A stretch of DNA of 63,599 bases, filler included, from Sphacelaria rigidula (lineage: Eukaryota): the NCBI GenBank assembly GCA_964200075.2. It is 8 parts of 8 records of this genome, joined end to end, with 100 filler letters (N's around TTAATTAATTAA, not from the genome) between each part and the next. Parts side by side here need not be neighbours in the genome. Positions count along the whole stretch, not along the records: positions 47,777 to 55,638 come from CAXNAA020013189.1; 7 more parts are not named here. One strand, given 5' to 3'. Under the pieces are notes generated by a model that was not told where the DNA came from, searched no databases, and saw nothing but the letters and a program-made list of their open reading frames with translations. Below, piece by piece: positions 31,011-63,599 of the stretch (its first letter is position 1; the number at the start of each line of letters is the position of its first letter). The position numbers and the translations under genes were made by a program.

Positions 31011-31852
31011 ACGCGACTAGCTTGTGGCTTGTCCTTTGCCCGAGACACGGTGCGAGCCTATACAGCTCGCCCCCCGTCTGTCACTTCACTTCACATCCCA
31101 GTCTACTTCTGGGATCTCCACTGTCAGCTCTCCTGAGCATTGTCCTGTCCTCAACGTACCGTCATAGCTTGATCGACAGGGCGCTCTACTGTCTCAGAGA
31201 GGCCAGGGATCGTAACCCTCTGGCGTCACTCTACTGATGTGTACTGAACCGTGTTACTACAGGAAAAAAAAATGTAAGGCAGGTAAAATATTAACCCGGA
31301 AATCGAACCTACAATACGATGTCAACTTATGGAAGGTAGAAGTAAGTCGAGGTGACGTCGTCGGTCATGGCGAATGCTGGGGGAAGGTTCGGGCACATCG
31401 ACCGACGGAGCTCTACCAGTCATTAGAATCTCGAACGCTGCTGGGGTTAATGTGGCTTCGCTTCCTGCTTGGTTGTTTCGGTGCATGCAAAACCTCATGA
31501 AGAGTCGAAATGTCATCACAGGATGGCACATTCAACGAGGGGACCTTAGGATTTGTACGTAAACAATGGTTGGTACTATGGAGATGCCGCCAACCCTAAC
31601 GCTAACCCTAACCCTAACCCCGACCAAGGCATACCGAGAACCCTCGGGCAAAGGGGTGCAGAGTGTTCCCTAGGCAAGGTGTGCGTTGCCAGAGCTCAAA
31701 TCGACGCCTTTCAGCCGATTTTGGACCAAAACACGTTCTGGACGAGCTGGGTNNNNNNNNNNNNNNNNNNNNNNNNNNNNNNNNNNNNNNNNNNNNTTAA
31801 TTAATTAANNNNNNNNNNNNNNNNNNNNNNNNNNNNNNNNNNNNNNNNNNNN

Positions 31853-38300: not shown

Positions 38301-39889
38301 GAGTAGTCTAGCGAGTGGCAGATACGTGGATTGGATGATGAATGTTCGCCAGATGGGTCGGAGTACGAATCCGCAGACGATAGTGGTGGCAAGAGGAGTT
38401 CCGCTGAGTGTTCGTTGGAAGGGTCGGATGACGAATCTTCAGGCAATAGCGATAGCCAAACAGATTGTTCAGAGGGTAGCGAGTCAGATTCCTCAGACGA
38501 GACATCATCCCAAAGCGACGTCGACGGATGAGGTCCAAGTCGTGATCTTTTCGGTTAGGGTTATCACGATACAAACGTTTGTGTTGATGATGTTTGAAGG
38601 CGTGTATTTTTTTGCGGATGAAATAGCCTGGCATTGTGAAGATGCATTTATTTGTTGTGCCGTGAGCATGATTTTTTATGTAATAAAGATGATACTCGAT
38701 CAGACACCGAACATGTCTATTCTCCGACAGGAAATGGAAACAAACCGTCTTCACACACGCAACCGACCAATGCCGGGGACAATACACTCGTGCCTCAGGA
38801 GGGGCGGAGCCAAAAACATACATAGAAGGCGTCCCAGTGGCATGTGGCTTCAGGAAAAGTGGGTCGACCACTTCATCCTGATTTTATGCCATATTAGTGA
38901 CGTGCGAGACTGCAGGCTTGTCCTGCGTTCGAACCCCAACTCTCGCGCATTTCTTCATTTCGCCTAGAAGCGGGTTTTTATGTCATGGACGTTACTGAAG
39001 TGAATATTCGAAATTGTTGCTGACGGAGTAATGCACCTTCTCAGACGGTATGTTGCACCGTGGTGGTATGGTATCACAGAAATGGATACAACGTGTAACA
39101 ATAACGGCCGTGTGCCTAGCACTGGTGGAGGAAGTACACACATAAGTGGTGCTGGTGTGGCACGTGGAATGAGCCATGACGGGCGGATCGCATCTTCGAG
39201 TGTTTCATGCACGGTCGGTCCTATGTGTGTGCCTGGTGGCCGCGGTTCGCGAACTATGCATGGGGTGGACTGCGCGCATATTTTGTTATCGCCTGTACAC
39301 GAGTTTTGATGTCACGAACTTTATAGAAGCTGACGTTGGAAATGTTGTGTGAGAATGAACACACATACACAAATCTGTCTTCCACGAGGTCAGTTGCACA
39401 AGACAGCTACCTTCGATGAAGACTGACCGCGCAGCGCACGCCTGGAGTATAACGGAATGTCGTGCTTGATTAAAACAGAGAAGGAATATACCCCAGAGGA
39501 TGGAGATGAGTGCCGCCGCTGTGGGCGCCGTGTGGCAGATGCCTCATACTTTACACATAACAGAAGGATGTTTGATCGGGCTTGATGCCCAACAGCACAT
39601 CACACGTGAACATTTTTTTTACATGATGGTTACCCAATAACAGGAAACAGTGTTTTCGTGAGATTGAGAGTAGATGATACGATTGATAGCGGCTTTGATC
39701 ATTCGCTTTATGTGNNNNNNNNNNNNNNNNNNNNNNNNNNNNNNNNNNNNNNNNNNNNTTAATTAATTAANNNNNNNNNNNNNNNNNNNNNNNNNNNNNN
39801 NNNNNNNNNNNNNNTCCTCCGGGTTCTCATCCTCAATGAAAAGCACCATCCTCAACATAGATGATCGGCTGTTAATAGGAGGAAACCAA

Positions 39890-41735: not shown

Positions 41736-42017
41736 AGCCGTGAGACAAAATCAAAAGCACGGTATATGCCCGGTGAAACCGAGATTCACAGAGCCGGGTG
41801 GGTACCATGGTCAGATTTGTCAGCCTGGTTCCATCAACGCTGAGACTGTTTTTGACTACCGATAGTGCGCTCAACCATGCCCATTAGATTTTTTCGTGTC
41901 TTCATTTTCTCACACAAACTCTTCATGCCATCTCCTTGACAAGTTGCAACGGGGAAGCGGGTCGGAGTGCATGCTCACGTCTCATGAAGCTCACCATGAA
42001 CATGCACCAGTACTCAC

Positions 42018-43217
42018 CATTCCTTCCTCGAAATTCTTCTTGACAACTGCATGCACCCAGTCGACGGCTTCGGTACTGCGGGATAGAATCGCTAGCGTGA
42101 ACAGGGATCTACCAGCCAAGGAAATCGCCTCGATTGCACGTCGTACGCGTGACTGAGCTTCGCACTCCCTGGTGTCAGCTCCTCGTATTTTCCTCTCGAC
42201 AAGGTCCAGCACGTCCACATGGCCTCGTCGGGCCGCTGCAGCCAGCAGCATTCCATGTCCCCATGCCTTTAGCAGGTCGTCCGAAAGTCCGTCAATGGAT
42301 GCTGCACTCTTATCGGTGCTCTTTATCACCAAGGTCACTGCAAGTATTTCGTCCAGATCCCCTTTGTCGAGATCCACCTTGTCGAGATTCACCTTGTCGA
42401 GGTTCACTTTTTCTCCGCCACCATGGACAACCATCTCAATTACCATATTCCACGACTGCAGTCCACCATACGCAGCGTGTATCAACTCTGTCGTGCCCTT
42501 CACCACGACTTGATCGAACTCCAACTTGCACCGTTCTTTTTTCGTCCTCCCGGTGGATACGTCGTCGACAGATAGCCCTCTCAAGTCCCGCGGCACCTTC
42601 GGATGAAGTCGAAGCGGGCGACTGTGCATCCACCCGTCTTCGCCGGCATGATTGCGTTTTTCCCAGAGGAGCTCGAACTTCTGTGTTACGCTGTCTCCAA
42701 TGCTGCCCGCGCTGTAGCGCCTGCGCAAGACGTACATCATGGGGGTCCGTCCGTTGTTGTCCGGCTTGCTCATGGCGTCAAAGACCTCGTACTTCTCGGC
42801 CATCTCGATCACCTGCCGCAGAATATCTGCGTTCCCAGCCTCGCTCGCATGATGAAGCAATGTACGTCCAGACTTGTCAGGCTGGACAAATACTGTCTTT
42901 AGCTTCTCCTCCCAATCCTTGCGGAGGTTCTGGCCAGAGAGACTCCCCTTGCAAGCTGCCTCAAGCAAACGCAACACCTCACGGAAGACCTCAATGTGAT
43001 TGCTTCTAGCGGCATACATGAGAATTCCTCTGGCGGCCTTGCGGTCGACTGCCTCTACTTGCTCTATCAGACCGATCGCTGACAGGGTTTCCTCAATCGT
43101 TTGGCGAACAGCTTCGAAGCACGAACGCGGTCCTTTGCTACTTGCTGCGAGAGATAGCAGGGGCGCTCCGTTTGCATCCGATTCCCTCAGTTGCTTCACG
43201 AGCCCTCTTAATCCCAG
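42018..43217 (-). CDS. Ankyrin-repeat protein, 1200-nt internal exon
   Basis: Acceptor ctattag|CTG, donor ATG|gtgagt, phase 0/0. Ankyrin motifs DANGAPLLSLAA, DKSGRTLLHHASEAGNADIL, DNNGRTPMMYVL and LLAAAARRGHVDVL. Confidence 0.88.
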
Positions 43218-44800: not shown

Positions 44801-45445
44801 CAGTAGTGGGCGGTCTAACTATTCAGCGGAGTTTCGAGGTTTTCCTCGCGTACTACTCTTCGATAGAATTCGAAATTGATAGCGTCGGTAGATTTCGGTA
44901 CATTGAATAGATCATCCTCAAAACACAGTGCCCAAGTCAGAGCTAGTTGGTGTTATGGGTGCGTACTCATTTGTTGCTTGCCTTAGTAATTTGACCATTG
45001 ACCACGCATCCCTTTCGAGACGGAGCAAGTTGGTGTTATGGGGGGAAACGAGTAAATACCCCGTTCATCAGGAGGGTGTTATTGACCATGTAACAAATTT
45101 TACAAAGTTTTTAGGCTCTAGTGCAATGAGTAGGCAGAATTTCAAAAAAAACTAAAAATGAATTTGTTTTTAGAAATATGTTCGGGACAGGCTCGATCGG
45201 CCGAAAATACAGAAGAGAAAGAATCTGGGCTGAAACGTCGCAGGACCCTCGATGACCAGTCAGCCCGTAAGTCACTCAATATTGAGTACAGATTGAAAAA
45301 AAAATCTTGGAATGTGGAGCGGATACAAATATCTTCAGATTCCCAATGTGCTGAGTGGTGGCAAGCGAAAAGAGCCCAAGAAAATCGCCAATTACGAAGA
45401 AATCACACAATGCCTCAAAATGAAAAGTTAGACCGCCCACTACTG
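44801..45445. mobile_element. Tc1/mariner-like MITE with TA TSD
   Basis: TA|CAGTAGTGGGCGGTCTAACT...AGTTAGACCGCCCACTACTG|TA, a perfect 20-bp TIR. The empty-site version of the host repeat is at ~31670. Confidence 0.92.
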
Positions 45446-48400
45446 TAGGCCAAGTATGCGTTGGCATAGATCAATTCTGTACCGATTTGCTCCGGGACGC
45501 GTGCTGCGTACGCTGGGGATGTGGTCGGGACTGTGAACCCTGTACAAATCCGAATATATGATGGAATATACTGATTCCACGTCCTTGCTTGCTATAGATT
45601 TTGTCCCCGAGTTCGTGTGAAGCTTAGTTGCAAGTGCTGTAATGCGTGAGCGGATCGCGTGCTCTTTGGACCGCATTGGAGTTCAAAATACCCCGGGATC
45701 GACGTTTATCCAGACCGCCCCGGCCAGTCCCTGCTGGGACCACGCCCCTGGCCCCAAAAAACCCTAACCCTAATCGTGACCATTGGGATGTTCAAACTCC
45801 GACGCGGTGCAAAGAGCACGCGGTCTGCTCGCGCATTGCAACGCTTCAACTGTTCTTGAGTAAGAGTCTCAAACCCTCATCAAGCGCCCGAACCTTAGCA
45901 TAAGGAGCTTATGCTCTTTAGGCCATGCACGTGGAGGACACGCACCCCTTCATCGCTGCAAATGTAGTGAAGTGCCCTTTTTTGTCGTTGTGATATCCCT
46001 AATCGTGCATCTCTGTACCCCGTGTCTTTTCCCAGGTGAACTGGGAGTGGTTTATGGCAGTAATAATGGTCGTCAGCAATCGTTCAAAAAATAACACGCA
46101 TCAAACGATTGACCAGCAAGATATATCTGCTGTGCATTGCGATCATTTACAGGTGGTGCCTCAGGACCAGCTTAATCGTTTGACTACACGCCTAGCTTTG
46201 GAACCATAATTTCGCTGGCAATCTTCTGCTACCTCGGTTGCATCTACTTCTCCACCGTAATCTTAGTAGGGCAGGATGCATTTGTACGCTGTGCCATGCT
46301 TCACTTGATGGAGTTATCTTGGCAACCCACGGGGCATGTGCCGACAACTGCACAGTAGCTCCACCTCTTTCGCGTATTCGAACCGTCTCTTCTCGTCGCT
46401 ATAGAAAAGGCAAAATGCGGCTGAGCTACGAAGTGGTCGATGATTTGGTATTTCATACTGGGAAACAAACCTAGCTGAAAGTTGGTACGCAGTCAATCTG
46501 CCTCGTACACACATCTTCAAAATAAACAAGTGCTCTGGCTATCAGCAGAACAATTCTACTTGACTTTAGTGTTATCAACGGAGGGAGTCAACGAAACGGC
46601 AGAGCAGAAACACAAGATCGAGGCGCGGACTCAATTTGAGGGACCTCTGGCGTCGTGCGCATTACTCGCCGAATAAGGGGGCATAGAATACAGCGCAAGG
46701 GACTGACCTCGGGTGACCACCTGTCGATGCCACGTACGGCATATAGATTGCCGTTGCAAGCCCTTTTTCATTGGCCAGCGCATATTCGGTGAGGCTCAAA
46801 GCAATACAGTGTATGTTCAAGCCCAGTGAGGGTGGCCCAGGCGACTCTGTTGCCGCACACTCTCTTGGGCAGAGTCGAGAGGGAGAGGTTTTCATGCGCT
46901 TTCTCTCAGAGACCCTGAACGGTGCTCTACTTGAGAATTTGTTCGAGAAATATTGAGAGAAACAATATACATAATCCATTCATGTCAGGACGGTGCTCCG
47001 ACAGTTCGCTAGCGCAAATTTCGTGATTATTCTTCATATCGAGTTGGGATGAAGCCAAATGTTAAGTGCGTACCGTGATTCAACTCGGGATTTTACAGAT
47101 TAAATTGCGGATGGGCTTTTTATTGAGCATGACTCTCGGGAGACTTCATGAGCATCGAAATATTTTTCAAATGTAAATATAAATGCACTTTACGGCCTTG
47201 ATGTTTAGCCTCACTTATCCTCAAAGGTATCCATCCGCAGTTTGAAAAATCTTGTGTTCGTACCGAACCATTTCGACGTTCGTTCATTCCCGTACAGAAC
47301 ACTGTTCTTTTCTGTCGGAATTTCCTGTGCACACGGGATTCAACTAATTACGAGATTTCACTTATTGCGGGTGGATTTTCTACAATTAAGGAGCGAGGCC
47401 ACACATCACAGCCGGTGAGTGCATTTTCAGTTTGGTTCCGAGGTAAGTTCAATAGTTATGAGCGCTCGCACGATTCATCCCTAAAAGTTATCCCATGCGA
47501 AATGTGTAAAATCCCGTGCTACTTGTCGATGCAGCCCACAAAATGAGCGTCGATTTTGTCATGATTGATCCGTGGCCAAATTGAGTCATGCTACCATAGA
47601 CGAGGGGGGAGGGGGGCGTTCTCATGTGTTGCTTGCCTTAGTCGTTTGACCATTGACCACGCATCCCTTTCGAGACNNNNNNNNNNNNNNNNNNNNNNNN
47701 NNNNNNNNNNNNNNNNNNNNTTAATTAATTAANNNNNNNNNNNNNNNNNNNNNNNNNNNNNNNNNNNNNNNNNNNNTTTCTTATGGCCTATGCACTGCCC
47801 ATACCAAAGTTCAGGGCCCAACTCTAAATGCATAAAAGAGCATGGGCCTGCAAACTTCAAATCCGCCTCTAGGCTGGCCCACTTCGTACAGGTTTTGAAA
47901 ACCTCCTAGTCCCGTGTTTACCATTCGAAAATGAAAGTGAAGCATTTTTTCGAGTGAACAGGCCAAAAATCATGATCGTGTTTTATTCTGTACGTTGCAT
48001 GACGGTATGACCATCACGACGATGAGCATGGTTTGATGCTGTACTGAACTGTACGATACCGTGTAGGACAGCACCACGTCGTGCTTATATAGGTGCGGTG
48101 CAATATACGGCAGTTAGCGCGGCATATACGCCACGTATGGCTGAAAAAAAAGTGGGATGCCTGTACCTTCGGGTGCATAGGGATGTTACATACCGTCGGC
48201 TACTGAGTAAATATCACGATGCCCGTACTTGCAGCATGCTCACCGCTGCAGTCAATAGGACGTGAGAGGGAAGCGGACACAGTACAGTACAGAGAGCGCA
48301 GGACTGTATGTATGTTTCCTGCGTACAGTGCGACGTGAATAGGACTTGAGCAATGTGCGCAGCTTTGTCTGCCTGCACTGTACATGGGCGTGTATATGCA

Positions 48401-49014
48401 GTAAACCGCCGGTTATTGCCCGCACCATACTCCGCTGCTCAAGTTGAAATTTCCACCAACAAGACATACACCATGCCTAACTACTGCAGTGTATATCTAT
48501 ATCCCCCTGTGCCGAACTCGTTCTCTTTGTTGCAGAGATATTGTGGAGGTATTACAGCTGGGAAGAAGTGTTGTCGGGTTTGCATTTTAAATCTGTGAGC
48601 GGCGTGTGTTGCTTGCGAGGCCATAGTCGGTCCCTCCTCCGGAGGAATGATGGCTCATTTTTTCCTCTGCTGTTCGTATTTCCTCCGAGAGACGTTCACG
48701 AGAAACACGTGCTTCGGAGCACCATATCTTCGGTACTCTGGAGGGATTCAGACGTCGGAAGCCACTGGAGCACCAGATGCAGGGGACTTGTTATATGACC
48801 CGAACCGGGTATGCGATACCCTCCAGAGGGTATTTTTACCCTCCCGACGGTCACTATTTCCTCGGGGGGATGAATCGCGATAGAGGATTTCCAGTGGGGT
48901 AGCCGATGGCCGCGTGTGGGGTCAGAGGCGCACATGACAGATTCACGAGACAGTCGAGTAAACTTCAAATACTATCCCTGCTCCGATACACATTCACTCG
49001 TCGAAGGAACTCGC

Positions 49015-49066
49015 CGCGTAGCCGATTGCTCGAGAGGTCAAAAGTTCCCAGGTTGCTGAGCTGACC
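49015..49066 (-). pseudogene. Decayed terminal LRR exon
   Basis: Retains QLSNLGTFDL-like sequence, but the acceptor half is deleted, the donor is GCGAGT and there are indels. Confidence 0.7.
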
Positions 49067-49259
49067 CAAGTTTGAAACACACGGGGATTGCAGTCCCATC
49101 ACGTTTCCCACCTCGACTGCAAATGCGTCCCGCCAACCCGGAGCCTACCCGGAGACGAGACACTATTTCACGACACAACAGCCGACCACAACTTGACATT
49201 ATCGCGTGAACCTTCAATACCGGCCATGCTACCATACACGTTTGTCCCCAGGAACTCAC

Positions 49260-52200
49260 CGCTCAGCTGGTTTCCGAAGAGGTTCAGCGTTCCTAGGTTG
49301 CTGAGCTGACTAAGGGAGTGCGGAATTGCGCCTGCATGATGTCCAAAACACGCGTGGATTGCAGGCCCATCAGTTTCTCACATCCACTACAATGCGTGCC
49401 GCCAACCCGGAGCCTACCCGGAGACGAGACACAGTTCAACGAGACAACAGCCGACCACGACTTGACACTATCGCGTGAACCTCCAATACTGCCCCTGCCA
49501 CCATACACGTTCATTTATCCCGAAGAACTCACCCCTTAGCTGGTTAATGAAGAGGCGTAGCGCTGTCAGGTTGCTGAGCTGACCAAGGGAGTGCGGAATT
49601 GCGCCTGCATGGTGTACAAGACACGCGTTAATTGCAGTCCCATCAGTTTCTCACCTCCACTATAAATGCGTCCCGTCAACCCGGAGCCTACCCGGAGACG
49701 AGACACAGTTCCACGAGACAACAGCCGACCACGACTTGACACTATCGCGTGAACATTCGATACCGGCCCTGCTACCATACACGTCCCTTTGTCCCCAGGA
49801 ACTCACCGCTCAGCTGGTTCCTGGAGAGGTCTAGCGTCCCCAGGTTGCGGAGCTGACCGAGGGAGTCCGGAATTCCGCCTGCATGATGTCCAAAACACGC
49901 GTGGATTGCAGTCCCATCAGTTTCTCACATCCACTACAATGCGTCCCGCCAACCCGGAGCCTACCCGGAGACAGGACACAGTTCCACGACACAACAGCCG
50001 ACGACGACTTGACACTATCGCGTGAACCTCCGATACCGGCCCTGCTACCATACACGTTCATTTGTCCCCAGGAACTCACCGCTCAGCTGGTTCCTGGAGA
50101 GGTCTAGCGTCCCCAGGTTGCTGAGCTGACCAAGGGAGTCCGGAATTGCGCCTGCATGGGTGTCAAAAACACGCGTGGATTGCAGTCCCATCAGTTTGTC
50201 ACACCCACTGGAATGCGTGCCGCCAACCCGGAGCCTACCCGGAGACGAGACACAGTTCCACGAGATAACAGCCGGCGACGACTCCACACCATTGCGTGGA
50301 TCTTCGATACCGGCCCTGCTACCGTACACGTTCATTTGTCCCGAGGAACTCACCGCTCAGCCGGTTTCTGGCGAGGTCTAGCGTCCCCAGGTTGCTGAGC
50401 TGACCGAGGGAGTCCGGAATTGCACCTGCTAGGTGTCCGAAACACGCGTGGATTGCAGTCCCATCAGTTTGTCACCTCCACTACATTGCGTCCCGCCAAC
50501 CCGGAGCCTGCCCGGAGACGAGACACAGTTCCACGAGATACGACACAGGTCCACGAGATACGACACAGGTCCACGAGACAGCAGCCGACCACAACTTGAC
50601 ACTATCGCGTGAACCTCCAATGCTACCCTTGCTACCATCAACGTTCATTTGTCTCGAGGAACTCACCGCTCAGCTGGTTTTGCAAGAGGTTGAGAGTCCC
50701 CAGGTTGCTGAGCTGACCAAGGGAGTCCGGAATGGCGCCTGCATGGGTGTCCAAAACACGCGTGGATTGCAGTCCCATCAGGTTTCCACATCCACTACAA
50801 TGCGTGCCGCCAACCCGGAGCCTAGACGAGACTCAGTTTCCACGAAATAGCAGCCAACCACGACTTGACACTATCGCATGAACCTTCGATACCGGCCCTG
50901 CTACCATACACGTTCATTTGTCCCAAGAAACTGACCGCTCAGCCGGTTTCTGGAGAGGTCTAGCGTCCCCAGGTTGCTGAGCTGACCAAGGGAGTCCGGA
51001 ATTACGCCTGCATGGTGTCCAAAACACGCGTGGATTGCAGTCCCATCAGTTCTCCACCTCCACAACAATTCGTGCCGCCAACCCGGAGCCTACCCGGAGA
51101 CGAGACACAGTTTCACGAGACAAGACACAGTTCTACGAGACAAGACACAGTTCCACGAGACAAGACACAGTTCCACGAGACAAGACACAGTTCCACGAGA
51201 CAAGACACAGTTCCACGAGACAACAGCCGACCACAACTTGACACTATCGCGTGAACCTCCAATACTGCCCCTGCAACCATACACGTTCATTTGTTCCAAG
51301 GAACTCACCGCTCAGCTGGTTTTGCAAGAGGTTTAGCGTCCCCAGGTTGCTGAGCTGACCAAGGGAGTCCGGAATGGCGCCTGCATGGGTGTCCAAAACA
51401 CGCGTTAATTGCAGTCCCATCAGTTTTCCACATCCACTACAATGCTTGCCGCCAACCCGGAGCCTACCCGGAGACGAGATACAGTTCCACGACACAACAG
51501 CCGACCACAACTTGACGCTATCGCGTGAACATCCAATACTGCTCCTGCTATCATACACGTTCATTTGTCCCGAGGAACTCACCGCTCAGCTGGTTCCTCG
51601 AGAGGTCTTGCGTCCCCAGGTTGCTGAGCTGACCAAGGGAGTCCGGAATTGCGCCTGCATGGTGTCCAAAACACGCGTTGATTGCAGTCCCATCAGTGTC
51701 TCATCTCCACCACAAATGCGTCCCGCTAACCCGGAGCCTACCCGGAGACGAGACACAGTTCCACGAGACAAGACACAGTTCCACGAGACAACAGCCGACC
51801 ACAAGTTGACACTATCGCGTGAATCACGAACACTATCCGTGCTACCGTACACGTTCATTTGCCCCCAGAAACTCACCGCTCAGCTGGTTGTGGGGGAGGT
51901 TTAGCGTCCCCAGGTTGCTGAGCTGACCAAGGGAGTCCGGGATTGCGCCTACACGGTGTCCAAAACACGCGTGGATAGCAGTCCCATCAGTGTCTCACAT
52001 GCACTACAAATGCTTCCCGTCAACCCGGAGCCTACCCGGAGACGAGACACAGTTCCACGAGATAAGACGCAGTTCCACGAGACAAGACACAGTTCCACGA
52101 GACAAGACACAGTTCCCCGAGACAACAGCCGACCATAACTTGACGCTGTCGCGTGAGTCTCCAATACTGCCCCTGCTACCGTGTACGTTCATTTGTCCCA

Positions 52201-53675
52201 AGGAACCCACCGCCCAGCTGGTTTCCGACCAGGTTTAGCGTCCCCAGGTTGCTGAACTGACCAAGGGAGTCCGGAATTGCGCCTGCTCGGTGTCAAAACC
52301 AAGAGTGGATTGCAGTCCCAACAGTTTCCCACCTCCACTACAATGCGTCCCGTCAACCCGGAGCCTACCCGGAGACGAGACACAGTTCCACGAGATAAGA
52401 CACAGTTCCACGAGACAACAGCCGACCACAACTTGACACTATCGCGTGAACCTCCAATACCGGTCCTGCTACCGTACACGTTCATTTGTCCCCAAGGAAC
52501 TCACCGCTCAGCTGGTTTTGCAAGAGGTTTAGCGTCCCCAGGTTGCTGAGCTGACCAAGGGAGTCCGGAATGGCGCCTGCATGGGTGTCCAAAACACGCG
52601 TGGATTGCAGTCCCATCAGTTTCCCATATCCACTACATATGCGTCCCGTCAACTCGGAGCCTACCCGGAGATAAGACACAGTTCCACGACACAACAGCCA
52701 ACCACAACTTGACACTATCGCGTGAACCTCCAATACCGGCCCTGCTACCGTACACGTTCATTTGTCCCAAGGAACTCACCGCTCAGCTGGTTAACGGAGA
52801 GGCGTAGCGCTTTCAGGTTGCTGAGCTGACCAAGGGAGTCCGGAATTGCGCCTGCATGGGTGTCCAAAACACGCGTGGATTGCAGTCCCATCAGTTTCTC
52901 ACCTCCACTAGAAATGCGTCCCGTCAACCCGCAACCTACTCGGAGACGAGATTCAGTTCCACGACACAAGAGCCGACCACAACTTGACGCTATCGCGTGA
53001 ACCTCCAATACTGCTCCTGCTACCATACACGTCCCTTTGTCCCCAGGAACTCACCGCTCAGCTGGTTTCCGAAGAGGTCTAGCGTCCCCAGGTTGCTAAG
53101 CTGACCGAGGGAGTCCGGAATTGCGCCTGCATGGTGTCCAAAACACGCATGGATTGCAGTCCCATCAGTGTCTCACATCCACTATAAATGCGTCCCGCCA
53201 ACCCGGAGCCTACCCGGAGACGAGACACAGTTCCACGAGACAACAGCCGACGACGACTTGACACTATCGCGTGAACCTCCAATACTACCCCTGCTACCAT
53301 ACACGTTCATTTGTCCCCAGGAACTCACCGCTTAGCTGGTTTTCGAAGAGGTCTAGCGTCCGCAGGTTGCTGAGCTGACCGAGAGAGTCCGGAATTGCGC
53401 CTGCATGGTGTCCAAAACACGCGTGGATTGCAGTCCCATCAGTTTCTCACCTCCACTATAAATGCGTCCCGTCAACCCGGAGCCTACACGGAGACGAAAC
53501 ACAGTTCCACGGGGCAACAGCCGACGACGACTTGACACTATTGCGTGAATGTCCGATACTGCCCCTGCTACCATACACGTTCATTTGTCCCCAACGAACT
53601 CACCGCCCAGCTGGTTTTCGGAGAGGTTTAGCGTCCGCAGGTTGCTGAGCTGACCGAGGGAGTCCGGAATTCCGC
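49260..53675 (-). CDS. LRR domain encoded by 16 single-repeat 72-nt exons (ROCO-type LRR exon array; consensus GAIPDSLGQLSNLGTLDLSRNQLS)
   Basis: Exons: 53604-53675, 53329-53400, 53055-53126, 52780-52851, 52505-52576, 52211-52282, 51877-51948, 51583-51654, 51309-51380, 50936-51007, 50667-50738, 50354-50425, 50080-50151, 49807-49878, 49533-49604, 49260-49331. All are YAG|...|GT (mostly GTGAGT), phase 1/1 and stop-free. A CTGAT branch-like motif lies ~40 nt before most acceptors. Confidence 0.93.
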
Positions 53676-53812
53676 CTGCATGGTGTCCAAAACACGCGTG
53701 GATTGCAGTCCCATCAGTTTCTCACATCCACTACAATGCGCCTCGTCAACCCGGAGCCTACCCGGAGACGAGACACAGTTCCACGACACAACAGCCGACG
53801 ACGACTTGACAC

Positions 53813-54161
53813 TGTTTGTAGGATGGCCTGCGGTGTTCAGTAGGATACACCTAGTCAGGGTAAGGTACAACAGTCTAGTGACATACGTGTTTGAGTTCCG
53901 GCTACTACGCGGAATGACTATATTGTGATGTTAGTAACTGGACATACGTGAGTAGTGCTTATCGCATCTTGGTACGTTGGCCCCGTAGGGCCCACTCCCC
54001 TTCCTTCCCTCTTCATCAACAAAGCTTTATATACATTTCTACCTCATCTTGATCGGCAGTCAGCCGTGTTCATTGATCGACTATCGCTGTCGTGTGCATT
54101 GATCGACTATCTGAGTCGAGTCTGTACCCCATCCTCTCACGGGGTCACGAAGCTACAAACA
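53813..54161. mobile_element. Solo-LTR-like insertion in an LRR-array intron
   Basis: GACAC|TGTTTGTAG...CTACAAACA|GACAC: TG..CA ends, 9-bp inverted termini and a 5-bp flanking duplication. Confidence 0.75.
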
Positions 54162-54214
54162 GACACTAGAGCCCAAACCCTAACCAACTTGGGAGCTCCG
54201 TGGCCAAGGGACCG

Positions 54215-54700
54215 ATGGCGGACCGGAGCACTGCGGAAAGACACTCGGCCATCGTAGGAGACTCATCGTCTCCAACAGAGATGCTGGAGGTGAAAGAGAA
54301 TGTCGCCAGCTTGCAAGGATCGGTGACGGATATCACCGAGCAGCTGGTGGAGCTGAAGACGATGATGGTGTCCCAGTTAGTGCGCGGGACATCGTCCACT
54401 GGCCCCGGAGCGGCAGCGGACGAGGAGGGGGAGGCAGGCGACGGAAGGCACACCGTCGCCGGTGCCGGAACAGGGAGGGTCCGGTCACCACTCGGTGTAG
54501 GGATTGTATCAGGCCCTCTCCGAGGATCCACGGGCGATGGATCCGCCCATGTAAGTATGAACGAGGAGTCCCCGGCTTACTACCCTCATCTAGGCGTGAA
54601 GAGTTGTTTTCGTGTTGATGAAAGATTCGATGAGAAGTTTGACAGTAAGGAGAAAAATTGGCCGTTGTTCCGTGATGATGATCTCCCCGACACAAGTTAG
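54215..54700 (+). mobile_element. Possible gag-like 5' ORF of a degenerate retroelement
   Basis: Coiled-coil-like start (EMLEVKENVASLQGSVTDITEQLVELK) preceded by a PBS-like TGGGAGCTCC. No diagnostic motif was seen. Confidence 0.3.
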
Positions 54701-57094
54701 TGCCGCACTTTTCATAAGCACCTCACGTGAAAGACGGGAAATATTTCCGTATGACACAGGAAACTGGCCAGGACCCCCGTGAAGTGGCAAGGGAAGTCGA
54801 AAAAGGAATTTACGAATTTACAAGGGACCTCGGGGGATATGGGGGATTCGAAACGTGATGGGCGTGAAAAATGGTTCTGTAAAGGAGAGGTGATGTTGGA
54901 TTTGCCGAAAGCAAACGACACACTTCGCGCGTGACTGTCCGGAACGACATTGTATGAGATACGGAAAAAAGAGACACTCTTTTGAGGATTATAATACAGG
55001 AGAAGAAGATACAGCGATGGCAGTAGGGTCACCGGGTAGTACCGATTCTTCAGTATGTTCGGAAGCGGACGCAGAAGCCTTTTGAAAAATGATGGCATGA
55101 GACCTATGCATGACTCAAATACCCCTTTGTTTTTATGTTTTGAGTGTTCGTGTCCATCACGCAGATAGCGATTTATGTACCCAAGGAGGGGTTGTTGCCC
55201 AGGTGGATCGAGATATTGGATATCTCTGGACAATGCTGAGTTCATATTTTTGATATGGACACCGAAACTCAGTGTTGATGTTTGACGAATTTGTGGCTCG
55301 ATGAGTGCATACCTACTTTGCGCGTTTGTTTGACTCGATTGATGAATAGAAAACCGTCTGCCGTTTTTGTAAGTATGAGGAGAGCGGGGCACCGCGACTT
55401 GACTTGACTGTGGAACGGTGTCGGTAAAATTGCACAGAGTGAAGTGCGTGAAGAGTGTTGAGAACATGTTTTGACATGGTTGCCGAAACTCACCGCTTAT
55501 GGGTAACATTATTGCCACCCCGATGAGCGCAGGACTGTGGGGCACCACACCCTTACTCGATCGGTTGAGGTGGAACCTTGTTCGTCGCCTTGGTGAGTAC
55601 AGGCACGTGGGGCACTGCTGTCTGACTAGACTAGAGGGNNNNNNNNNNNNNNNNNNNNNNNNNNNNNNNNNNNNNNNNNNNNTTAATTAATTAANNNNNN
55701 NNNNNNNNNNNNNNNNNNNNNNNNNNNNNNNNNNNNNNGGCCGAAGAAATCGTGAAATTGGTGATTTTGAGTCGTGATGATTTTGTCCTATGAACGTGAA
55801 AACATTGGTGCAACGAAAAGCAACCCCCAAAAAGAAATCGGGCTCGACGTCTAACCCCATACTACTTCCTACATAATACGCGTACGACGCTAGTCCTTTG
55901 GGTGAGAGACTACTCGTAAAAAATGAGATGTTGAGCCCGGTATAGGCCCGACACAGTATCTCCTACTATTTGTAGCGAGCGCTACAGTGTGAACCATGGG
56001 CATCTCGCGTCAGCCCCAACTTGAGCGGTTTTCGTCAACCAACCCGTTTCCTCACGAAACGGTGACATGGATCCAGGTTATCTCCCGTGCTCTCGCACAT
56101 ATCCCTTACTTATTTCGTGATAGAACGTCTGGTTGTCAGAAAGGGAACTCAGGCCATCGACAGATACTCAAGCGACCATATTCTAGGGTCGTGCATCAAT
56201 ACAAGCACACAAGGTAATATATACCGGCGATCGGCGGAGGTCGTATTGCCTTTCCCTTGTCCAAGAAATAAAATTCGACCGACCATCCAAGTATCCATTC
56301 AATCCCAACCAATCAATGAATTGATTATAATATATGACAAAAATATCGAAGTACATCGCAAAAATGCCTCATCAACATTTGACCCAAACTGTATAACGCC
56401 CCCCCGCTCCCCCCCCCCAAAAAAATATTGGTCAACTCATCGTGCCGAATTTTTAGATGTACAATACAACAGGTATCGACAGATAGTATCAAATGCATCT
56501 GCAGGGGATGATACACAACCTTTACTGTACAGCTGGTGCATTGTGCTGTGCTGTACTCTGCTGCGTTGTGTTTGTCTCTCGACTTCGTTCAGTTCACCAT
56601 GACCGTTCCACATGCTTCTCATGTCGTTCTTTCCTCGAGCCTTCTTGAGCGAGTGTTTCTGTCCTGTGTACCTTACTGAGTGCGTCCATTTTGTGGATAA
56701 TGACCACAGCTGGATTACTCGGTGACCAGATAATGACCACGACTGTATCACTCTATTTTTGTGGATAATGACCACGGCTGGATTACTCGGTGATCGGATA
56801 ATGTGCTACAATCAAAGCAAGTCATAACAAGAAATTAAACCTAGGGTCCACCCCTTCGTAACCTTTTATGCCCCAGATCTCCACCTTGACTGATGTCGCC
56901 CATGGTAAGAGGGTTTGGGTCTATCCAAGGACACTTGTAGCAATTTACCCCTTGTACAATGACGCGCATTCCCTCACAACGAGTCTCCTCCGGGCGCTAC
57001 ACACGCACCAATCTCCCTGTCGAAACTCTGGATGCTCTCTTGACAATTTTTCCGGCCGTTACATCCATTTTGCAGCAGGGGCTTCCAATATTTT

Positions 57095-57511
57095 CATGGG
57101 TATACACGTTACACGTGACGTTTTTACGCGACGCGTTCGAAAAAACGTAACTTTGGGCCAATTGACGCTACGTATGGTTTAATTTTTTGGACGGGACAAG
57201 TGTAAAGTAACGTGATGTAACGTGTGGTCGTTCGCATGAACCCCACCATAGCGTTTTACTTTTCAAATGTGACGAAAACTCTGCGTTTTTTCGTGAATAT
57301 GTAACGTATCACATGTCACGTAATATATATATATATATATATATACGTCTGGGAAATCCCGAGAAGCACTGCTTCAAGGTCCACACGTTACATCACGTTA
57401 CGTTACATTTGTCCCGTCCAAAACATCCAACCTTACGTAGCGTTATTTGACCCAAAGTTACGTTTTTCCGGTTTTTTCAAATGTGTAACGTGTGTAACGT
57501 GTATATCCCTG
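57095..57511. mobile_element. hAT-like MITE with 8-bp TSD
   Basis: AATATTTT|CATGGGTATACACG...CGTGTATATCCCTG|AATATTTT, with long inverted arms. Confidence 0.9.
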
Positions 57512-57574
57512 AATATTTTTTGTTCAATCGAGGGAAGCGACGCAGACAGAAATCATGCCTTGCATTGCACCAAC

Positions 57575-60500
57575 CTCGAACTGGCAGCGGCTGCTGACGA
57601 CATCAATCATGCCGGGGTCCTTGTGGGCGCTGCAGAACGAAGCACGCTGGCCGACCATTGCGTACAGCGGTCGCCTGGCGCACTCCGGGTGCTGGCAACG
57701 CCGACTGACCACGTCAACCATGCCTGGTGCCTTGTGACCGCTGAAATTTGAGGAGGTAGCGAGGGCAGGAGGAGGAAGGTAGGGGGGATACGTGCATCAG
57801 GAAGGGAAGATGACATGCATGCAAGCTTGAGTCTCAGTTCCAATTATCATGGCGTTAGCTTGATACCCAATCACGCGCGTCCGCCAAGGGATCGACTTAT
57901 ATATATATATACATATTGAGGCGTCTTTTACGATCGCTCCCGCGTGTGCAGTTGCAGTACTGGGTGATGTTCTCATTTAGGAAATGTTATTGTTCTTGTT
58001 GTTGTTGTCTTCACATCAAAAACCGCTCCGACATCTGCGCAGTACCCTATACTGGGCATCTGATGCCGACGACTTCCGTGACCATCTACCCAAAATAAGG
58101 TATGACGAAATGTAAATCGAGAGTTAACTCGGGAAGGAACAACCCCCGCTGAATATCTACCATAGGCAAAAGTCAAGTCGGCGAGTCAAGGGGACTCGTA
58201 TCTCTAGGCTTGTCAAACAGAGGCCATGACCCAGAGACATCATGAGAACATACAAGTGTGTACCGTGCATCACCCCACCGAGAGAAGTCTATCCCAATTT
58301 TCCGGCCCGATTAGCTTGGAGTTTTCGAGAACGCCCTCTGGGGTACGGCTGGAAAAAAAAGAAAACGCGGCGTCTGCAGATATTTTCGCCCAAGACATGT
58401 GATGGCGATTCTCCCTGACTGGGAGCCAAAAGCAGGGTCGAAATGAACCAAAAAGTGGAAAATACGCCCCTACAAAAATATCCAACCTGAAAGACAAGGT
58501 CTCAGCACAAGAGAAAACAAAGTTTGAATTGCAGTATTGGAGAACAACATTCCACTAGACACATTCTTAGGATAAAGTTTCAATTTCGGTGACCTCGAGC
58601 TGATCAACTTGAAACTCAGTCTGCACGAGAACACAGGGACATGACACACATTCTGAAACAAAAGGTAAGTGAACATGGCAGAACCTCACCAGCAGAAGGA
58701 TGCCCGGCGATCCCCTGGGTATCCGAAGTTGGGGTGACGCAGGCACTGCGGAGCTCGGCAGCGGCGGCTTGACACGTTGACCATGTTGGGGAGGCGATGT
58801 TCGGAGCAAAAAGATGCCCGCTGATCACCCTGCGAACGCGGTCGTCATTTATCACCACATGTTACGGGCCACGAGTTAGCGCGGACTACGATTAGAGAAT
58901 ACCCCCACCGACGCACTACTGTACTGCGCTGCGTTTACCCTGCGGCACAATTGTCGGCACAGTTGTCGCGGTATTCATATACATGGGGGGGAGGGGGGGG
59001 ACATTCTTCTGAACAAGTGAGAGTACAAAATATATCGAATATCCAAATGAGCCGTCCAATGAACCGAGGTTCGCCAACAGAGTGGTGACACAGTAGGGGT
59101 GCACAAGAAACTTCGTAAGCCTCTTCATTTTAGGAGACGTTCAATGAGCAACATCCGAGCCCAACTGTGCAACCTCAGACAGCATTTGGCCAAAAACAAA
59201 TACACATTACCGTAGCAGACCAACTTGGCCGGCCACCACGTGTACCTCGATCCCGAAGCTAGGCTGTCGAAAGCAGGACTCGTGCTGGCAGAGAGGGTGC
59301 CTGACGTTAACCATCTCTTCCAACCTGACGACAAACGACAAGAGACGCGGTGGGAAACCATAATTTTTACAAACTTGTTATCAGCACACTGAAAGTTCAA
59401 AAACGGGCTAGGAACAACCCATCAGTTCCAGACCGAAAACACAGGGATGGCGCAAAGGAGCACCACGAAACTGTATCAGCAGGACGGCGAAATCGTACTT
59501 GGTCAGGCCGACATATATGGGCGGATACTGTTCACGTTTCAAACGGAGACCCATGATCCATGACAGTCGAACTTGCGCTAGCTTCGCCCCATTCGCGGCC
59601 AATATCTCCGCCCTTTGCTCCCGCGTGGGATCTTTCAAGGACACACCATGCCCGAGCACGTTCTCAACAGCTGCTCCCGCCACGTCTCCCTCTGCCCCCC
59701 TCTCCAAAACGCAACGATAGGCACAAACAAGGTCCCCGCTCCCAGGCGAATGACGGCCGTTACTTGTGTAATAGAAAAAAATGCAATGTCGTTTCTCTTA
59801 CGCTGTGGTATTACCTGTGCAACGGGCAACGGATGGCCTTGCGTGCTCCCTTGAAAGCGTACAGGGGTCGCCGTCGGCAGCCCATCTCTCTGCATCCTTT
59901 CACAACCCGCTCATCGGTGTTGTTGCCGCCCTCTTTGTTGCCGCTTTCCGTTCTGCCCAGAGCAAACGCATCCGTTCGTCCGTCCGTTCGTCCGTCCGTC
60001 CGACAAATTAATCAGCCACAAATATACGCGTTCGGTTTCGAAAATCGCGAGGCGGTAAAGAGGTACGCGACAGATAGACGTCAGGGCATATATTTTCTGG
60101 GGATGGGTGGCTGGACAGGTGAATACCCTGTTTTAACCTCTTCGGGGCCATACGGGAACTTGATGTTATTCATTATTTTTTACTCGTAATAGAGAATATT
60201 CCCACCGCGTGTCTTTTGGCGCTATGCATCATCACCCGGCCGAGAGGAGTCCAACCTACTATTTCCAACGCGCTCCGCTCCGACGCTCCGAGAATGTCGA
60301 TAACACCGTTAATATCTCCGCACACAAATACACACAACACAACCAAGAAAACGGGACCTTGCCCCGCTCCCCACCTTTCCGGACCCTGTGAACCGGATCC
60401 AACCGTTTTTGAACCCAGGATCGCAGCAGAGCTGATGCGCCTGTTGAGCGCTCGCGAAGAAGCGGCTTTGGTCGTACCGCCGTTGCCGAACGTCGCCGCT

Positions 60501-61735
60501 GCTGCCACCTCGAGCTCCCTCGCGCCGTTTTTTTTCACCTCTGCCCACGAGGTAACATCCACCCCGCCGCCGCCGCCGCCGCCGCCACCACCATCACCGC
60601 CCCCACCCCCGCCGTTGCCTCCGTCGCATAGAGCGGGCAACCCGCCACCACTTCCGGATCCGCTGGCAGCGCCGGCACTGCAGCTGGCTAGTTGCAGCGT
60701 GTCCAGCGTCACATCGGCGGAGGGCCGTCGTCGTCGTTCTTGTTCACCGACCGTCTGTACCACCGTGGTGACGATGCACGAGGGGAAGTCAGAGGAAGAA
60801 ACAGACGAGGAAGGTATCACGTCCTCTACTCCCTTTCCGTGCTGTCGCTGTTGCTGCTCTTGTTGTTGCGTACCGTAGAGAAGTGCGGGGGAGCCAATCA
60901 CGGCAGGCGACGACGGTCCTGTTTGCTGCTGCCCACCGATCAGGGGACGATATTTCAAGCCGCCCCCGTCCAGCATGCCTCCGGGCAAGTCGCCCCCTGC
61001 GTTGAAGGCGAAGCGGTCTTCAGAAAAATTATCGTCGGCAAAGCTAACGCCCGCCAGCAAGCCGCCCATTATAAGACCTTCTGTCAAGCCGTTGCCACCG
61101 CCGCCACCGCCATTGTCGGTGTCCACGTGACGAACTGGACGCGACCAGGCGGGGCCACCGGAATCATCTGCTGCGTGCGTCAGATCGTGATGGTCGTTCG
61201 TTGTGACCTGGTGCGCGAGGTGGGTCGCTTGTGCCGCCGGCGACGACAACGCAAACGACGGTCGCCGCCGTCGTTGTTGATGCGGTTGCCGCTGTTGTTG
61301 GCGCGTGGAGCCGCCCGCTCCGTGCCAAGCGACGCCGGTCGACGTCAGTCCCACCGCCCCCGGCAGCGCTACAGGAACTTGAGGCACTGAGGAGTTCATC
61401 TGGATACCCATTGCCGGCGTCGCGCTGCTCGTCCGCCTTATTGCTGCTCCCGGCGTTGCGGGAGAAGATACCATCAAGTTTATCGACATAGCGGCGGGTG
61501 TGTTCTCGTCGGGCGGTAGGCCGTTGCAGCTGTTGAGCCCCAGACCACTGCTCCACTCCTTATCCCAACTCACGGCGGGTGCTTCGTTTTCGTTGTTTGC
61601 GACGGCGGGGGCAACGGCGGTCGAGACGAGGCTGTCGGTCATCGTGGAGTTTTTCGTCGTCGGTACGGGCAATCGAATGCGAAACCTTTTCGCCGTTGCC
61701 GGGGCGGGGACGGAGCTGTCGATTTTGTTTCGCAT
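57575..61735 (-). CDS. EsV-1-7 repeat-domain protein (partial, 5 exons)
   Basis: Exons 61735-60375 (low complexity, start uncertain), 59952-59815, 59324-59246, 58829-58690 and 57740-57575 have GT-AG boundaries and compatible phases (2,2,0,2). The spliced product is CREMGCRRRPLYAFKGARKAIRCPLHRLEEMVNVRHPLCQHESCFRQPSFGIEGDQRASFCSEHRLPNMVNVSSRRCRAPQCLRHPNFGYPGDRRASFCCGHKAPGMVDVVSRRCQHPECARRPLYAMVGQRASFCSAHKDPGMIDVVSSRCQFE. Confidence 0.9.
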
Positions 61736-62075
61736 GATGGTTTCGATCTCCCGCGCTCGCTTGGTGGCAGTTGCGGTAGTAGTCGGAGTCGTCGACGAAG
61801 GGAAAAGGCGAACCGCACGCTGACCGCTGCGCGAGTGTGTACCACAGAGCAAGAACAAAATTAGGTCGAAGCGGGATCGGAAGAGGAGCGCGTTTCAGTT
61901 CACCCGCTGCAGTTGCTACCGTGTCCTCTTGCGGTCTTTCCCACACATTATTGTACAAGGAACACCAATAGGTCAACACCGTGTAATCCTGACACGACAG
62001 ACAAGACACGTCACGTAACGGTGCGACACAGCGACATAGATATTTACAAAGAACTGGCCAAGCCGATTGCATGAA

Positions 62076-62477
62076 CATGCTAAGTGTTTCGAGTACTATT
62101 GAGCTCATAGTTCCGTGCTCTGGGGGTGGGGTTGGGATAGCAGGCAACACGCGGTACTACCGTCTACAGTACTTGAGAACGGCCCGCAGGCTAGCTATAG
62201 ATGAAGGCCAGTTGGATATGGGTGATGCAGGGAGTTCGCGCGTCGAAATGGCTTCAGCTTCCCGCCCCGAGAAAATGAATTACTTGTTTTGAGCTCCGGT
62301 ACCTGGTGCGTGTGAATGGCAACGAAGAAAACATGCGCCACAACAAGATCGGCATGAATGCGTTGCTCGTGTGGCTTTTGCGAGCTCCCCCCGTAGTACC
62401 GCGTGTTGCCTGCTATCCCAACCCCACCCCCAGAGCACGGAACTATGAGCTCAATAGTACTCGAAACACTTAGCATG
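62076..62477. repeat. Perfect 85-bp inverted repeat with a 232-bp spacer
   Basis: 62076-62160 is the exact reverse complement of 62393-62477. Confidence 0.95.
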
Positions 62478-63599
62478 GACGAACCACTACTGCCCCTCAA
62501 AATTAAGGGACTGTCAGCCGAGCAACACACGGCAAGATTAAGCTCGGGAGCTCCAAGTTTCAAGTCTAATCGGATCGGAAACGCGCAGTTTTTTCACGTC
62601 CCTCGTACGATAACGGGTCGAAGAGGTAGGGGAGCGTGTCCGTATAGCTATACCAGACACAGCTACAGGGAAGCACCGGAGCGTGTAGTCTACTGTGCTT
62701 CGAGTCTCGATCTTACCGAAATAAGAAAATAATAACTGACAAAAAAAAAGAGGGAGAAACAAAGCTTGTCCGCCAGCAACAACCAGCTCGGGCCCCGACC
62801 AGGATATACAACACGGACTTTCTTGAGAGAGCGGTGTTTCTTTTGGCGCTGACCGCAGTCGGAAATGGGTCTGGAAATCCAAAAGGGCGCGACTGACACA
62901 AATTCTATCTACACAATCGGTGTGTCTTTCGGCTATGGCCGCCGTCGGAAACAGGTCTGGAAATGTCAATGGGCGGGACGGGAATACGCGCCACCGACAC
63001 AACCCAGCCCGAATAAAAACGCACACCCACAGTAGTACAAGTGCATCATGCCTCGCGCTAGCCCTTGTTTGTCTATACACCGCGCTGTTTTCTCCACCGC
63101 AACCCGAGCGGTATGGAAAAAAGGGCCGGTCCTGTGTATTTGCCACAAAATTTTCTCACGACGGGGTCGTTTATCGTTCCTGGGTGTATTATACGACACC
63201 CGTCTGTCAGAAATCATCATGAATGGTTTAATATAATTTTGAAGCGGTTCGCCCAGAGTCAAAATCATCGTACGCAGTTTATCAATAAACGCGGCTCGAA
63301 CTACCCGTTGCTCGACGTCGCCGCATTTTCTCGTAGAGGGAGGGGAGTATCGCGGCGACCAACTGACATGTGAAAAATGCCGCGATAGCCCCCCCTCCCC
63401 CGACACAAGTAGCTGCTTTGAGGGGGTAAAATCTACATTAAAAAAAAAAGAAACGAGCATACCGAGCAGCTGGAATATGTCACGCTTGGGATCGTTTTCG
63501 CCGAGAGTGTCCATCTGAGGCGCTTCATGCAGTCTGAAATCGGCTATCTTGTGCTGTAAGATCATTTCTTCATTACAATTTTGGAGCTGGTTTGGGGGG

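Follow-up and report, generated by a model that had tools for sequence, protein, structure and literature searches.

Sixteen short exons, each encoding a single 24-residue leucine-rich repeat (LRR), stand in tandem in the DNA of the brown alga Sphacelaria rigidula (assembly GCA_964200075.2), and they differ from one another above all at two adjacent codons, numbers 19 and 20. The variability of these codons is real and strongly non-random. It is probable, in our view, that the exons form an array of the 'type I' class described in other brown algae—enlarged by tandem duplication, held to its scaffold by purifying selection, and diversified in residues of the concave face, where the protein solenoid would present a binding surface. 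The window (the whole stretch of DNA analysed, 63,599 nt) is made of 8 parts of 8 records joined with 100 filler letters between them; coordinates are positions in this window, and imply nothing about neighbourhood in the genome. The array lies in the part that comes from CAXNAA020013189.1 (window 47,777–55,638).

Diversity at codons 19 and 20

The consensus unit reads G-A-I-P-D-S-L-G-Q-L-S-N-L-x-x-L-x-L-x-x-N-x-L-S, numbered here from G1 to S24. An earlier note on this DNA had described hypervariable codons concentrated on the predicted ligand-binding face, and the residues on which it relied were read correctly. Positions 19 and 20 are occupied, in transcript order, by SE, FE, FG, SV, LQ, VG, PH, SR, LQ, SR, LQ, AR, SR, SR, FI and FG, i.e. 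by 10 different dipeptides in 16 exons, specified by 12 distinct hexamers; residue 17 is D, N or R, residues 14–15 are GT, RT, KA or TA, and residue 22 is Q or R. The scaffold IPDSLGQLSNL, said to be almost invariant, is unaltered in 12 of the 16 exons.

When the 16 units are aligned and pairwise nucleotide diversity (pi) is computed column by column, the six columns of codons 19–20 have a mean pi of 0.533, the highest of any 6-nt window in the 274-bp unit. Intron pi is 0.121 (202 columns), the most variable of the 197 consecutive 6-nt intron windows reaches 0.353, and none of 200,000 random draws of six intron columns attained 0.533; the per-site comparison with introns thus bears out the suspicion that this window is the more divergent. 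Third positions of the scaffold codons (0.119) equal the introns, first and second positions have a pi of 0.036, and the six 'x' codons together come to 0.315. The kind of change differs, too: transitions and transversions stand at 193:191 at codons 19–20 versus 1757:1190 in the introns.

Where these residues lie in the protein follows from the register of the unit. The pattern GxxPxxLxxxxxLxxLxLxxNxLx is matched in all 16 exons at G1 (a split codon), P4, L7, L13, L18, N21 and L23, and in 15 of the 16 at L16, exon 8 having Q at this position instead; it follows that the variation falls on the x positions of LxxLxLxxNxL. Their placement on the concave face, as the note had it, agrees with two papers on this exon family, which, in the parts of them drawn on here, assign sites 15, 17, 19 and 20 to that face (PMC3341825; PMC11378527). 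Read across the exon junctions, the consensus L-G-T-L-D-L-S-R-N-Q-L-S-G-A-I-P-D-S-L-G-Q-L-S-N fits the plant-class pattern LxxLxLxxNxLSGxIPxxLGxLxx.

Rates of individual codons

Rates were estimated on a tree built from the intron flanks of each exon (95+95 nt, HKY model, length 0.97 substitutions per site). For each codon a nonsynonymous rate was fitted with the synonymous rate fixed at the intron rate, so that omega is expressed relative to introns. Recombination can inflate counts of changes, and for this reason the tests were repeated with two other topologies, one derived from the exons and one from the variable codons, whose branch lengths were re-estimated on the flanks; the one from the variable codons is the most favourable to the null hypothesis, and is called the conservative tree. 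As an empirical control, the same likelihood test was applied to 154 intron pseudo-codons.

Codons 19 and 20 stand out under all of these treatments. On the flank tree omega is 7.0 for codon 19 (p 3e-6) and 14.7 for codon 20 (p 1e-9); on the conservative tree it is 4.3 (p 0.0013) and 6.6 (p 3e-5). Their likelihood-ratio test statistics (LRTs), 21.75 and 37.4, respectively, exceed those of all 154 pseudo-codons, the highest of which is 15.5. Codons 14 (omega 3.7, p 0.03) and 17 (omega 3.0, p 0.016) show a nominal excess on the flank tree, codons 15 (omega 0.92) and 22 (omega 1.02) do not differ significantly from the intron rate, and nine scaffold codons have undergone no nonsynonymous change at all. 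The rate excess is robust, then, for codons 19 and 20, suggestive for 14 and 17, and absent for 15 and 22. Set against the intron rate, the expectation of dN/dS (the ratio of nonsynonymous to synonymous rate) above 1 stood for codons 19 and 20, and was not borne out individually for 14, 15, 17 and 22.

When both rates are left free, the scaffold codons have a synonymous rate (alpha) of 1.01 and a nonsynonymous rate (beta) of 0.34 relative to introns (p 0.006), and codons 19–20 have an alpha of 2.7 and a beta of 8.8. Offered a choice between diversifying selection and targeted mutation, as in the earlier note, we find selection the better option: replacement at codons 19 and 20 runs at 7 and 15 times the intron rate, respectively, next to a scaffold with an omega of 0.34. 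Targeted mutation as a continuing process is disfavoured, since units 5, 9 and 11 carry an identical hexamer despite flank distances of 0.10–0.15.

Repeat types

The units fall into a few types according to their variable residues. Units 5, 9 and 11 are of LQ type; units 8, 10, 12, 13 and 14 are SR/AR; units 1, 2, 3 and 16 are xE/FG; units 4 and 15 share K/T-A-R-x-V/I; and units 6 and 7 are singletons. Within types the variable codons are stable. The LQ trio keeps one hexamer at flank distances of 0.096–0.153, an outcome with a probability of 0.009 if its six bases changed at 4.3 times the intron rate, and of 0.0005 at 6.9 times. Hexamers are also shared by units 13 and 14, and by units 3 and 16, and the differences within the SR/AR type are mostly synonymous (TCC/TCG, AGG/AGA), plus one change between S and A.

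Hexamers differ at 3.61 of six bases between types and at 1.15 of six within them, a contrast that is partly circular because the types were defined post hoc from the variable codons; the flank comparison is not, and there the distances are 0.135 between types and 0.117 within (permutation p 0.04). Exon types and the flank tree disagree: neither units 4 and 15 nor the LQ trio, which has an upstream marker in common, group together on the flanks. The pairwise homoplasy index (PHI) test, uninformative on these units, gave p 0.42. What we see, in short, are sharply different types, each conserved, set among introns that are almost equally related in all units. This pattern would arise if selection had first diversified the units rapidly and constraint had then set in; it would also arise from homogenization and recombination of the flanks, with selection holding the contact residues apart.

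Organization of the array

Table 1. Features of the LRR array. Residues are those at positions 14, 15, 17, 19, 20 and 22; the codon 19–20 hexamer occupies exon start+13 to start+18 in each exon.
Feature	Position	Strand	Residues	Remarks
Whole tandem array	48930..53813	-		274-bp unit; 16 intact units + 1 degenerate edge unit
Exon 1	53604..53675	-	R T N S E Q	
Exon 2	53329..53400	-	R T D F E Q	
Exon 3	53055..53126	-	G T D F G Q	
Exon 4	52780..52851	-	K A R S V Q	
Exon 5	52505..52576	-	G T N L Q Q	LQ type
Exon 6	52211..52282	-	G T N V G Q	donor GTGGGT
Exon 7	51877..51948	-	G T N P H Q	TAG acceptor
Exon 8	51583..51654	-	G T D S R Q	Q at residue 16, not L
Exon 9	51309..51380	-	G T N L Q Q	LQ type
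Exon 10	50936..51007	-	G T D S R R	donor GTCAGT
Exon 11	50667..50738	-	G T N L Q Q	LQ type
Exon 12	50354..50425	-	G T D A R R	
Exon 13	50080..50151	-	G T D S R Q	
Exon 14	49807..49878	-	G T D S R Q	
Exon 15	49533..49604	-	T A R F I Q	
Exon 16	49260..49331	-	G T N F G Q	
Truncated 17th LRR unit	49019..49072	-		exon 5' half and acceptor deleted; donor GC, not GT
Candidate terminal exon	48965..49116	-		in-phase CAG acceptor after exon 16; ORF 48965-49144(-)
20-nt minisatellite, 6 copies	51097..51223			TRF
20-nt minisatellite, other TRF rows	50522-50578, 51745-51791, 52039-52125, 52378-52415

To find the exons, a splice-aware scan looked for 72-nt segments between AG and GT that had an open frame and an LRR motif, and it returned 17 rows (Table 1); the seventeenth (49221–49292) was dropped because it is exon 16 running on into its own intron. 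All 16 exons measure 72 nt between AG and GT and carry one LRR apiece, and the introns between them measure 197–301 nt. Donors are GT in 16 of 16 (GTGAGT in 14), acceptors CAG in 15 and TAG in one, and all 32 splice dinucleotides are intact. The first two nucleotides and the last one of every exon belong to a split Gly codon, so that all introns are phase 1; with phase-1 introns on both sides, any exon could be added, removed or passed over in splicing with no break of the reading frame. All 16 exons are open in the LRR frame, and the other two frames contain stops in 16 and 4 exons. Gaps occur in none of the 72 exon columns versus 119 of the 310 intron columns.

Tandem Repeats Finder (TRF) reports a period of 274–275 over 49075–53813, and by reading the sequence we place the ends of unit homology at 53813, in mid-intron, and near 48930. 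The unit of exon 16 is the most divergent of the intact ones (intron p-distance 0.13–0.20 to the others). No copy of the unit was found elsewhere in the window by blastn of one unit, and tblastn found no other LRR exon in the window, on either strand or inside introns, apart from the truncated edge unit, which is its sole significant match beyond the 16 exons (E 1.7e-6, 83% over 18 aa). A candidate terminal exon may follow exon 16, its frame passing through this truncated LRR and closing with a stop near 48965. The 15 internal introns contain 0–6 copies of a 20-nt minisatellite, which is the main source of their spread in length and of the gapped intron columns; it could serve as a substrate for unequal recombination between units.

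Partner domains

Pfam was searched with 201 open reading frames (ORFs) of at least 90 aa from the whole window, and with a second set of 136 ORFs that measure 25 aa or more, taken from the minus strand at 43.2–49.3 kb and 53.6–57.8 kb. Neither set contained a match to a Roc or Ras-like GTPase, which could lie beyond the window or in short exons, nor to a COR domain, a protein kinase, NB-ARC or LRRNT_2. ROCO GTPases have an N-terminus of about 45 residues that resembles the cap LRRNT_2 (PF08263); no upstream ORF matched this family with an E of 1 or below, and a six-frame search of the window for W...WxG[VIL] gave 9 matches, none of them in an LRRNT-like context. For want of Roc-COR, kinase and cap, we favour an LRR-only locus, or else a detached part of a larger gene, as the reading of the array.

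Explanation and alternatives

Growth of the array, as we envisage it, came from the complete 274-bp unit being duplicated in tandem, exon and intron together, and units later recombined with one another. Purifying selection would hold the scaffold residues I3, P4, L7, L10, N12, L13, L16, L18, N21 and L23 in place, and residues of the concave beta-face—19 and 20 most of all, 14 and 17 probably—would be set apart between repeat types and conserved within them. The likely function is that of a solenoid binding surface whose specificity would be determined by the string of residue 19/20 pairs. The layout of exons and introns, the contrast in diversity, the rates in excess of linked introns, the constrained scaffold and the stability of the types are observed directly. 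Splicing and translation of the exons, an origin of the differences in selection and not in import from elsewhere, and binding of a ligand by the surface are what we infer from them. For such exons the published explanation is the same, namely diversifying selection on residues that face the ligand, and to this the array adds no new principle.

Several observations weigh against this account. The likelihoods come from a self-written script (MG94xHKY), not from PAML or HyPhy, and its nominal test is anti-conservative: of the 154 intron pseudo-codons, 16 combine an LRT of more than 3.84 with an omega greater than 1. On the conservative tree codons 14 and 17 are no longer significant and, lying in the upper tail of the controls, they are indistinguishable from rate heterogeneity in introns; they are thus only nominal here, and site 15, a member of the published set of selected sites, is neutral. 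Compared with the local dS rather than with introns, dN at codons 19–20 is marginal (p 0.057 on the flank tree; 0.21 on the conservative one). The synonymous rate there is estimated at 2.4–2.7 times the neutral one, though not significantly above 1. The post hoc definition of the types has been mentioned. Nearly half of the informative site pairs (48%) are incompatible, so that, given the disagreement between exon types and flank tree as well, recombination is part of the array's history; a single tree is a poor model for it. Finally, no start codon was found inside the array, nor an LRRNT_2-like cap or downstream effector domain in the window, and the array may be neither complete nor expressed.

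Of the alternatives, importation of the differences is possible, although we would not bet on it: the diversity at codons 19–20 would be old variation, brought in by exon shuffling or by short-tract gene conversion from other LRR loci. The discord between exon haplotypes and flanks (units 4 and 15; the LQ trio with its upstream marker) speaks for this, as do flank distances that are barely lower within types than between them next to a roughly threefold contrast in hexamer differences, the incompatible site pairs, and recombination among type I loci, which has been published (PMC3341825). But the window holds no other LRR exon, on either strand, to act as donor, and shuffling would still need selection against homogenization to keep the differences; it complements the explanation by selection, therefore, and does not replace it.

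Rather unlikely, we think, is that the array is a non-expressed relic or detached fragment, the coding pattern of which was inherited, or refreshed by gene conversion, from functional type I genes. The absence from the 63.6-kb window of a cap exon, start codon, Roc, COR or kinase would fit such a fragment, and so would the abrupt mid-intron end of homology at 53813 beside a weak zinc-knuckle ORF, the dispersed repeats downstream, the truncated unit at the 3' edge, and the published recombination between type I loci in different genes (PMC3341825). However, the divergence between units arose in place, because the linked introns diverged too, and over that divergence the scaffold maintained an omega of 0.34 with synonymous change at the intron rate. 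Moreover, the 16 exons are free of stops and indels whereas the introns are riddled with gaps, the splice dinucleotides are all intact, and a candidate in-phase terminal exon is present.

A bolder idea, to which we give little credence, is that the array is no conventional gene but a selection-maintained, LRR-only cassette store, which would explain why scaffold and splice sites are kept intact although cap, start codon and effector domain were not found in 63 kb. Its units of exon and intron would be copied by recombination, in the germline or even somatically, into ROCO-type receptor genes elsewhere; the distinct hexamer types would then be stored specificities, and the 20-nt minisatellite could be a recombination substrate.

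Very improbable, lastly, is a mutational hot spot or targeted mutagenesis acting on the six bases of codons 19–20, on synonymous and nonsynonymous sites alike and with no selection for diversity: a shared-rate model (alpha = beta = 6.9 times the intron rate, or 4.3 on the conservative tree) is not rejected at 5%, as the marginal p values above show, the estimate of the local synonymous rate is above that of introns and intron sites are heterogeneous as well, but a hot spot could hardly have spared the hexamers of the LQ trio and of units 13 and 14, and 3 and 16, confined changes within the SR/AR type mostly to synonymous third positions, left the adjoining codon 21 invariant and codon 18 with only a synonymous third-position variant, and altered the ratio of transitions to transversions, nor would it explain the omega above 1 that PAML gave at these sites in 222 and 62 exons of the family (PMC3341825; PMC11378527).

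Neighbourhood

Adjoining the 5' edge of the array are plus-strand ORFs at 54170–55085, one with a CX2CX4HX4C-like zinc knuckle that falls below the Pfam threshold (E 0.031). It may be a fragment of a retroelement gag, and an insertion of a retroelement at this edge would be a guess; no long direct repeat pair of the kind expected of long terminal repeats was found in 53700–63599. On the strand of the array, 4–6 kb upstream in window coordinates, are three ORFs with the EsV-1-7 motif (PF19114), at 57527–57796, 58686–58844 and 59207–59377 (E 1.9e-17, 7.9e-16 and 4.1e-6, respectively), which probably constitute one multi-exon gene. Brown algae and their closest relatives have an expanded EsV-1-7 family, which, along with the architecture of the exons, fits an origin of the window in or near the brown algae.

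Downstream, a 65-nt dispersed repeat occurs at 44957–45021 and 47612–47676 (92% identical), with a similar translated motif at ~41.3 kb, and is probably a small mobile element. An ankyrin ORF of 408 aa runs uninterrupted on the minus strand from 41994 to 43217 (Ank_2, E 1.2e-11), with an internal 15-nt tandem repeat at 42351–42407; its protein search gave 7 matches, all unnamed, the best at 72% identity. Copia-type ORFs span 8152–15445 (+)—Pol_BBD and integrase at 8152–9141, RVT_2 at 9681–11108, gag at 12878–13636 and a second Pol_BBD at 13871–14434—an arrangement that suggests two adjacent or nested copies. There is an interstitial telomere-like run of AACCCT (31588–31620, 4.8 copies), and tandem repeats unrelated to the array are found at 34875–35341 (114/228-bp, 4 and 2 copies) and 17950–18192 (43-bp, 5.7 copies). 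Rfam gave no match at gathering score in the whole window. Runs of N (paired 44-N) recur every ~7,960 bases, at 7864–7963, 15827–15926, 23790–23889, 31753–31852, 39715–39814, 47677–47776 and 55639–55738, with a further run at 21902–21911; they look like an artefact of masking, assembly or preparation rather than biology.

Significance

We know of no immune receptors of the plant and animal types in brown algae, and arrays of LRR exons are the main candidate for their recognition repertoire. How such arrays diversify—by germline shuffling, alternative splicing or somatic recombination—is still debated. The array in Sphacelaria is an unusually clean natural experiment: sixteen young units, each with its own introns as a linked neutral yardstick. 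This yardstick addresses the limits of short exons and alignment that the 2012 authors acknowledged (PMC3341825). What is added here is modest: an intron-anchored test narrows the signal to codons 19–20, and constraint within types is easier to reconcile with selection among repeat types that already exist than with hypermutation that still goes on. With no signalling domain attached in 63 kb, the array is also a candidate for testing the 'reservoir' idea taken up below.

Comparison with known systems

The closest solved structures, by sequence, are ectodomains of plant LRR receptors (GSO1 6s6q, PEPR1 5gr8, FLS2 4mn8) and PGIP 1ogq (E 7e-41 to 1e-8). With the LRR ORF at 53584–53721 (-) as query, a search among longer proteins gave 5 matches among 20 candidates, all generic plant-class LRRs; the top two, both LRR-only and unnamed, are 1311 and 1063 aa long, and no named brown-algal protein is among the five. 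Metagenome DNA contained no locus with the 33-nt scaffold pattern. A looser pattern, two copies of 12 nt separated by 250–280 nt, picked out 21 metagenome loci; when the units were compared with them by blastn, 3 matched, over exon length only (41–79 nt, 72–83% identity), with no similarity in introns, and were rejected as unrelated contiguous LRR genes.

Like the LRR ectodomains and resistance-gene LRRs of the plant-specific class, the array encodes the 24-residue repeat LxxLxLxxNxLSGxIPxxLGxLxx. The concave sheet of plant LRR families is lined by the x residues of xxLxLxx, and it is on these that diversifying selection usually acts. Plant LRR genes mostly carry many repeats per exon, whereas the array has one, and unlike plant LRR receptors it has no signal peptide, transmembrane segment, kinase or NB-ARC detectable in the window.

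Its nearest counterparts are in other brown algae. The type I LRR exon was defined in Ectocarpus as a 72-nt exon with the register GxxPxxLxxxxxLxxLxLxxNxLx, as opposed to the offset register of type II (Zambounis 2012, PMC3341825), and occurs, according to the part of that paper drawn on here, in ROCO GTPases and also, among 164 LRR loci that are neither ROCO nor kinase genes, in 46, with positive selection at the concave-face sites 15, 17, 19 and (20). The array has the defining features of type I, namely one LRR per frame-neutral 72-nt tandem exon, the register, and an excess of nonsynonymous change over introns at sites 19 and 20. It lacks those of ROCO genes, in that no Roc-COR, linker or LRRNT_2-like N-terminus appears in the window. 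Relic or antisense LRR exons lie in the introns of 19 ROCO loci and of 13 of the 46 other type I loci in Ectocarpus, without being obligatory (PMC3341825); none was found in the array, only one truncated edge unit, and it differs further in being a very regular 274-bp tandem repeat with ~12% intron divergence.

The type I architecture and the same four sites were confirmed in four brown algae (Teng 2024, PMC11378527). In Saccharina, sites 14, 16, 18 and 19 of a 23-residue numbering, equivalent to 15, 17, 19 and 20 here, are reported there to be under selection, and evidence of alternative splicing is given in the same work, again in the part of it drawn on. Saccharina japonica has LRR-only loci with shuffling 72-bp exons, proposed to serve as a reservoir in the shuffling of LRRs, and the 16-exon LRR domain of SJ02233 is illustrated (PMC11378527). 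The array resembles these loci in having LRR motifs only, on 72-bp exons. The string IPDSLGQLSNL does not occur in one supplementary text file of Teng 2024, nor the repeat motif in the supplementary files searched for Zambounis 2012, files 1 and 3 not among them.

Farther afield, two animal systems offer a conceptual analogy only. The variable lymphocyte receptors (VLRs) of lampreys are cassette-based LRR receptors with interchangeable modules that differ at ligand-contact residues, and arthropod DSCAM, like the array, consists of tandem interchangeable modules that differ at such residues, too. Unlike VLR and DSCAM, the array shows no sign of somatic assembly or of mutually exclusive splicing; it most closely resembles, instead, the type I exons of its fellow brown algae.

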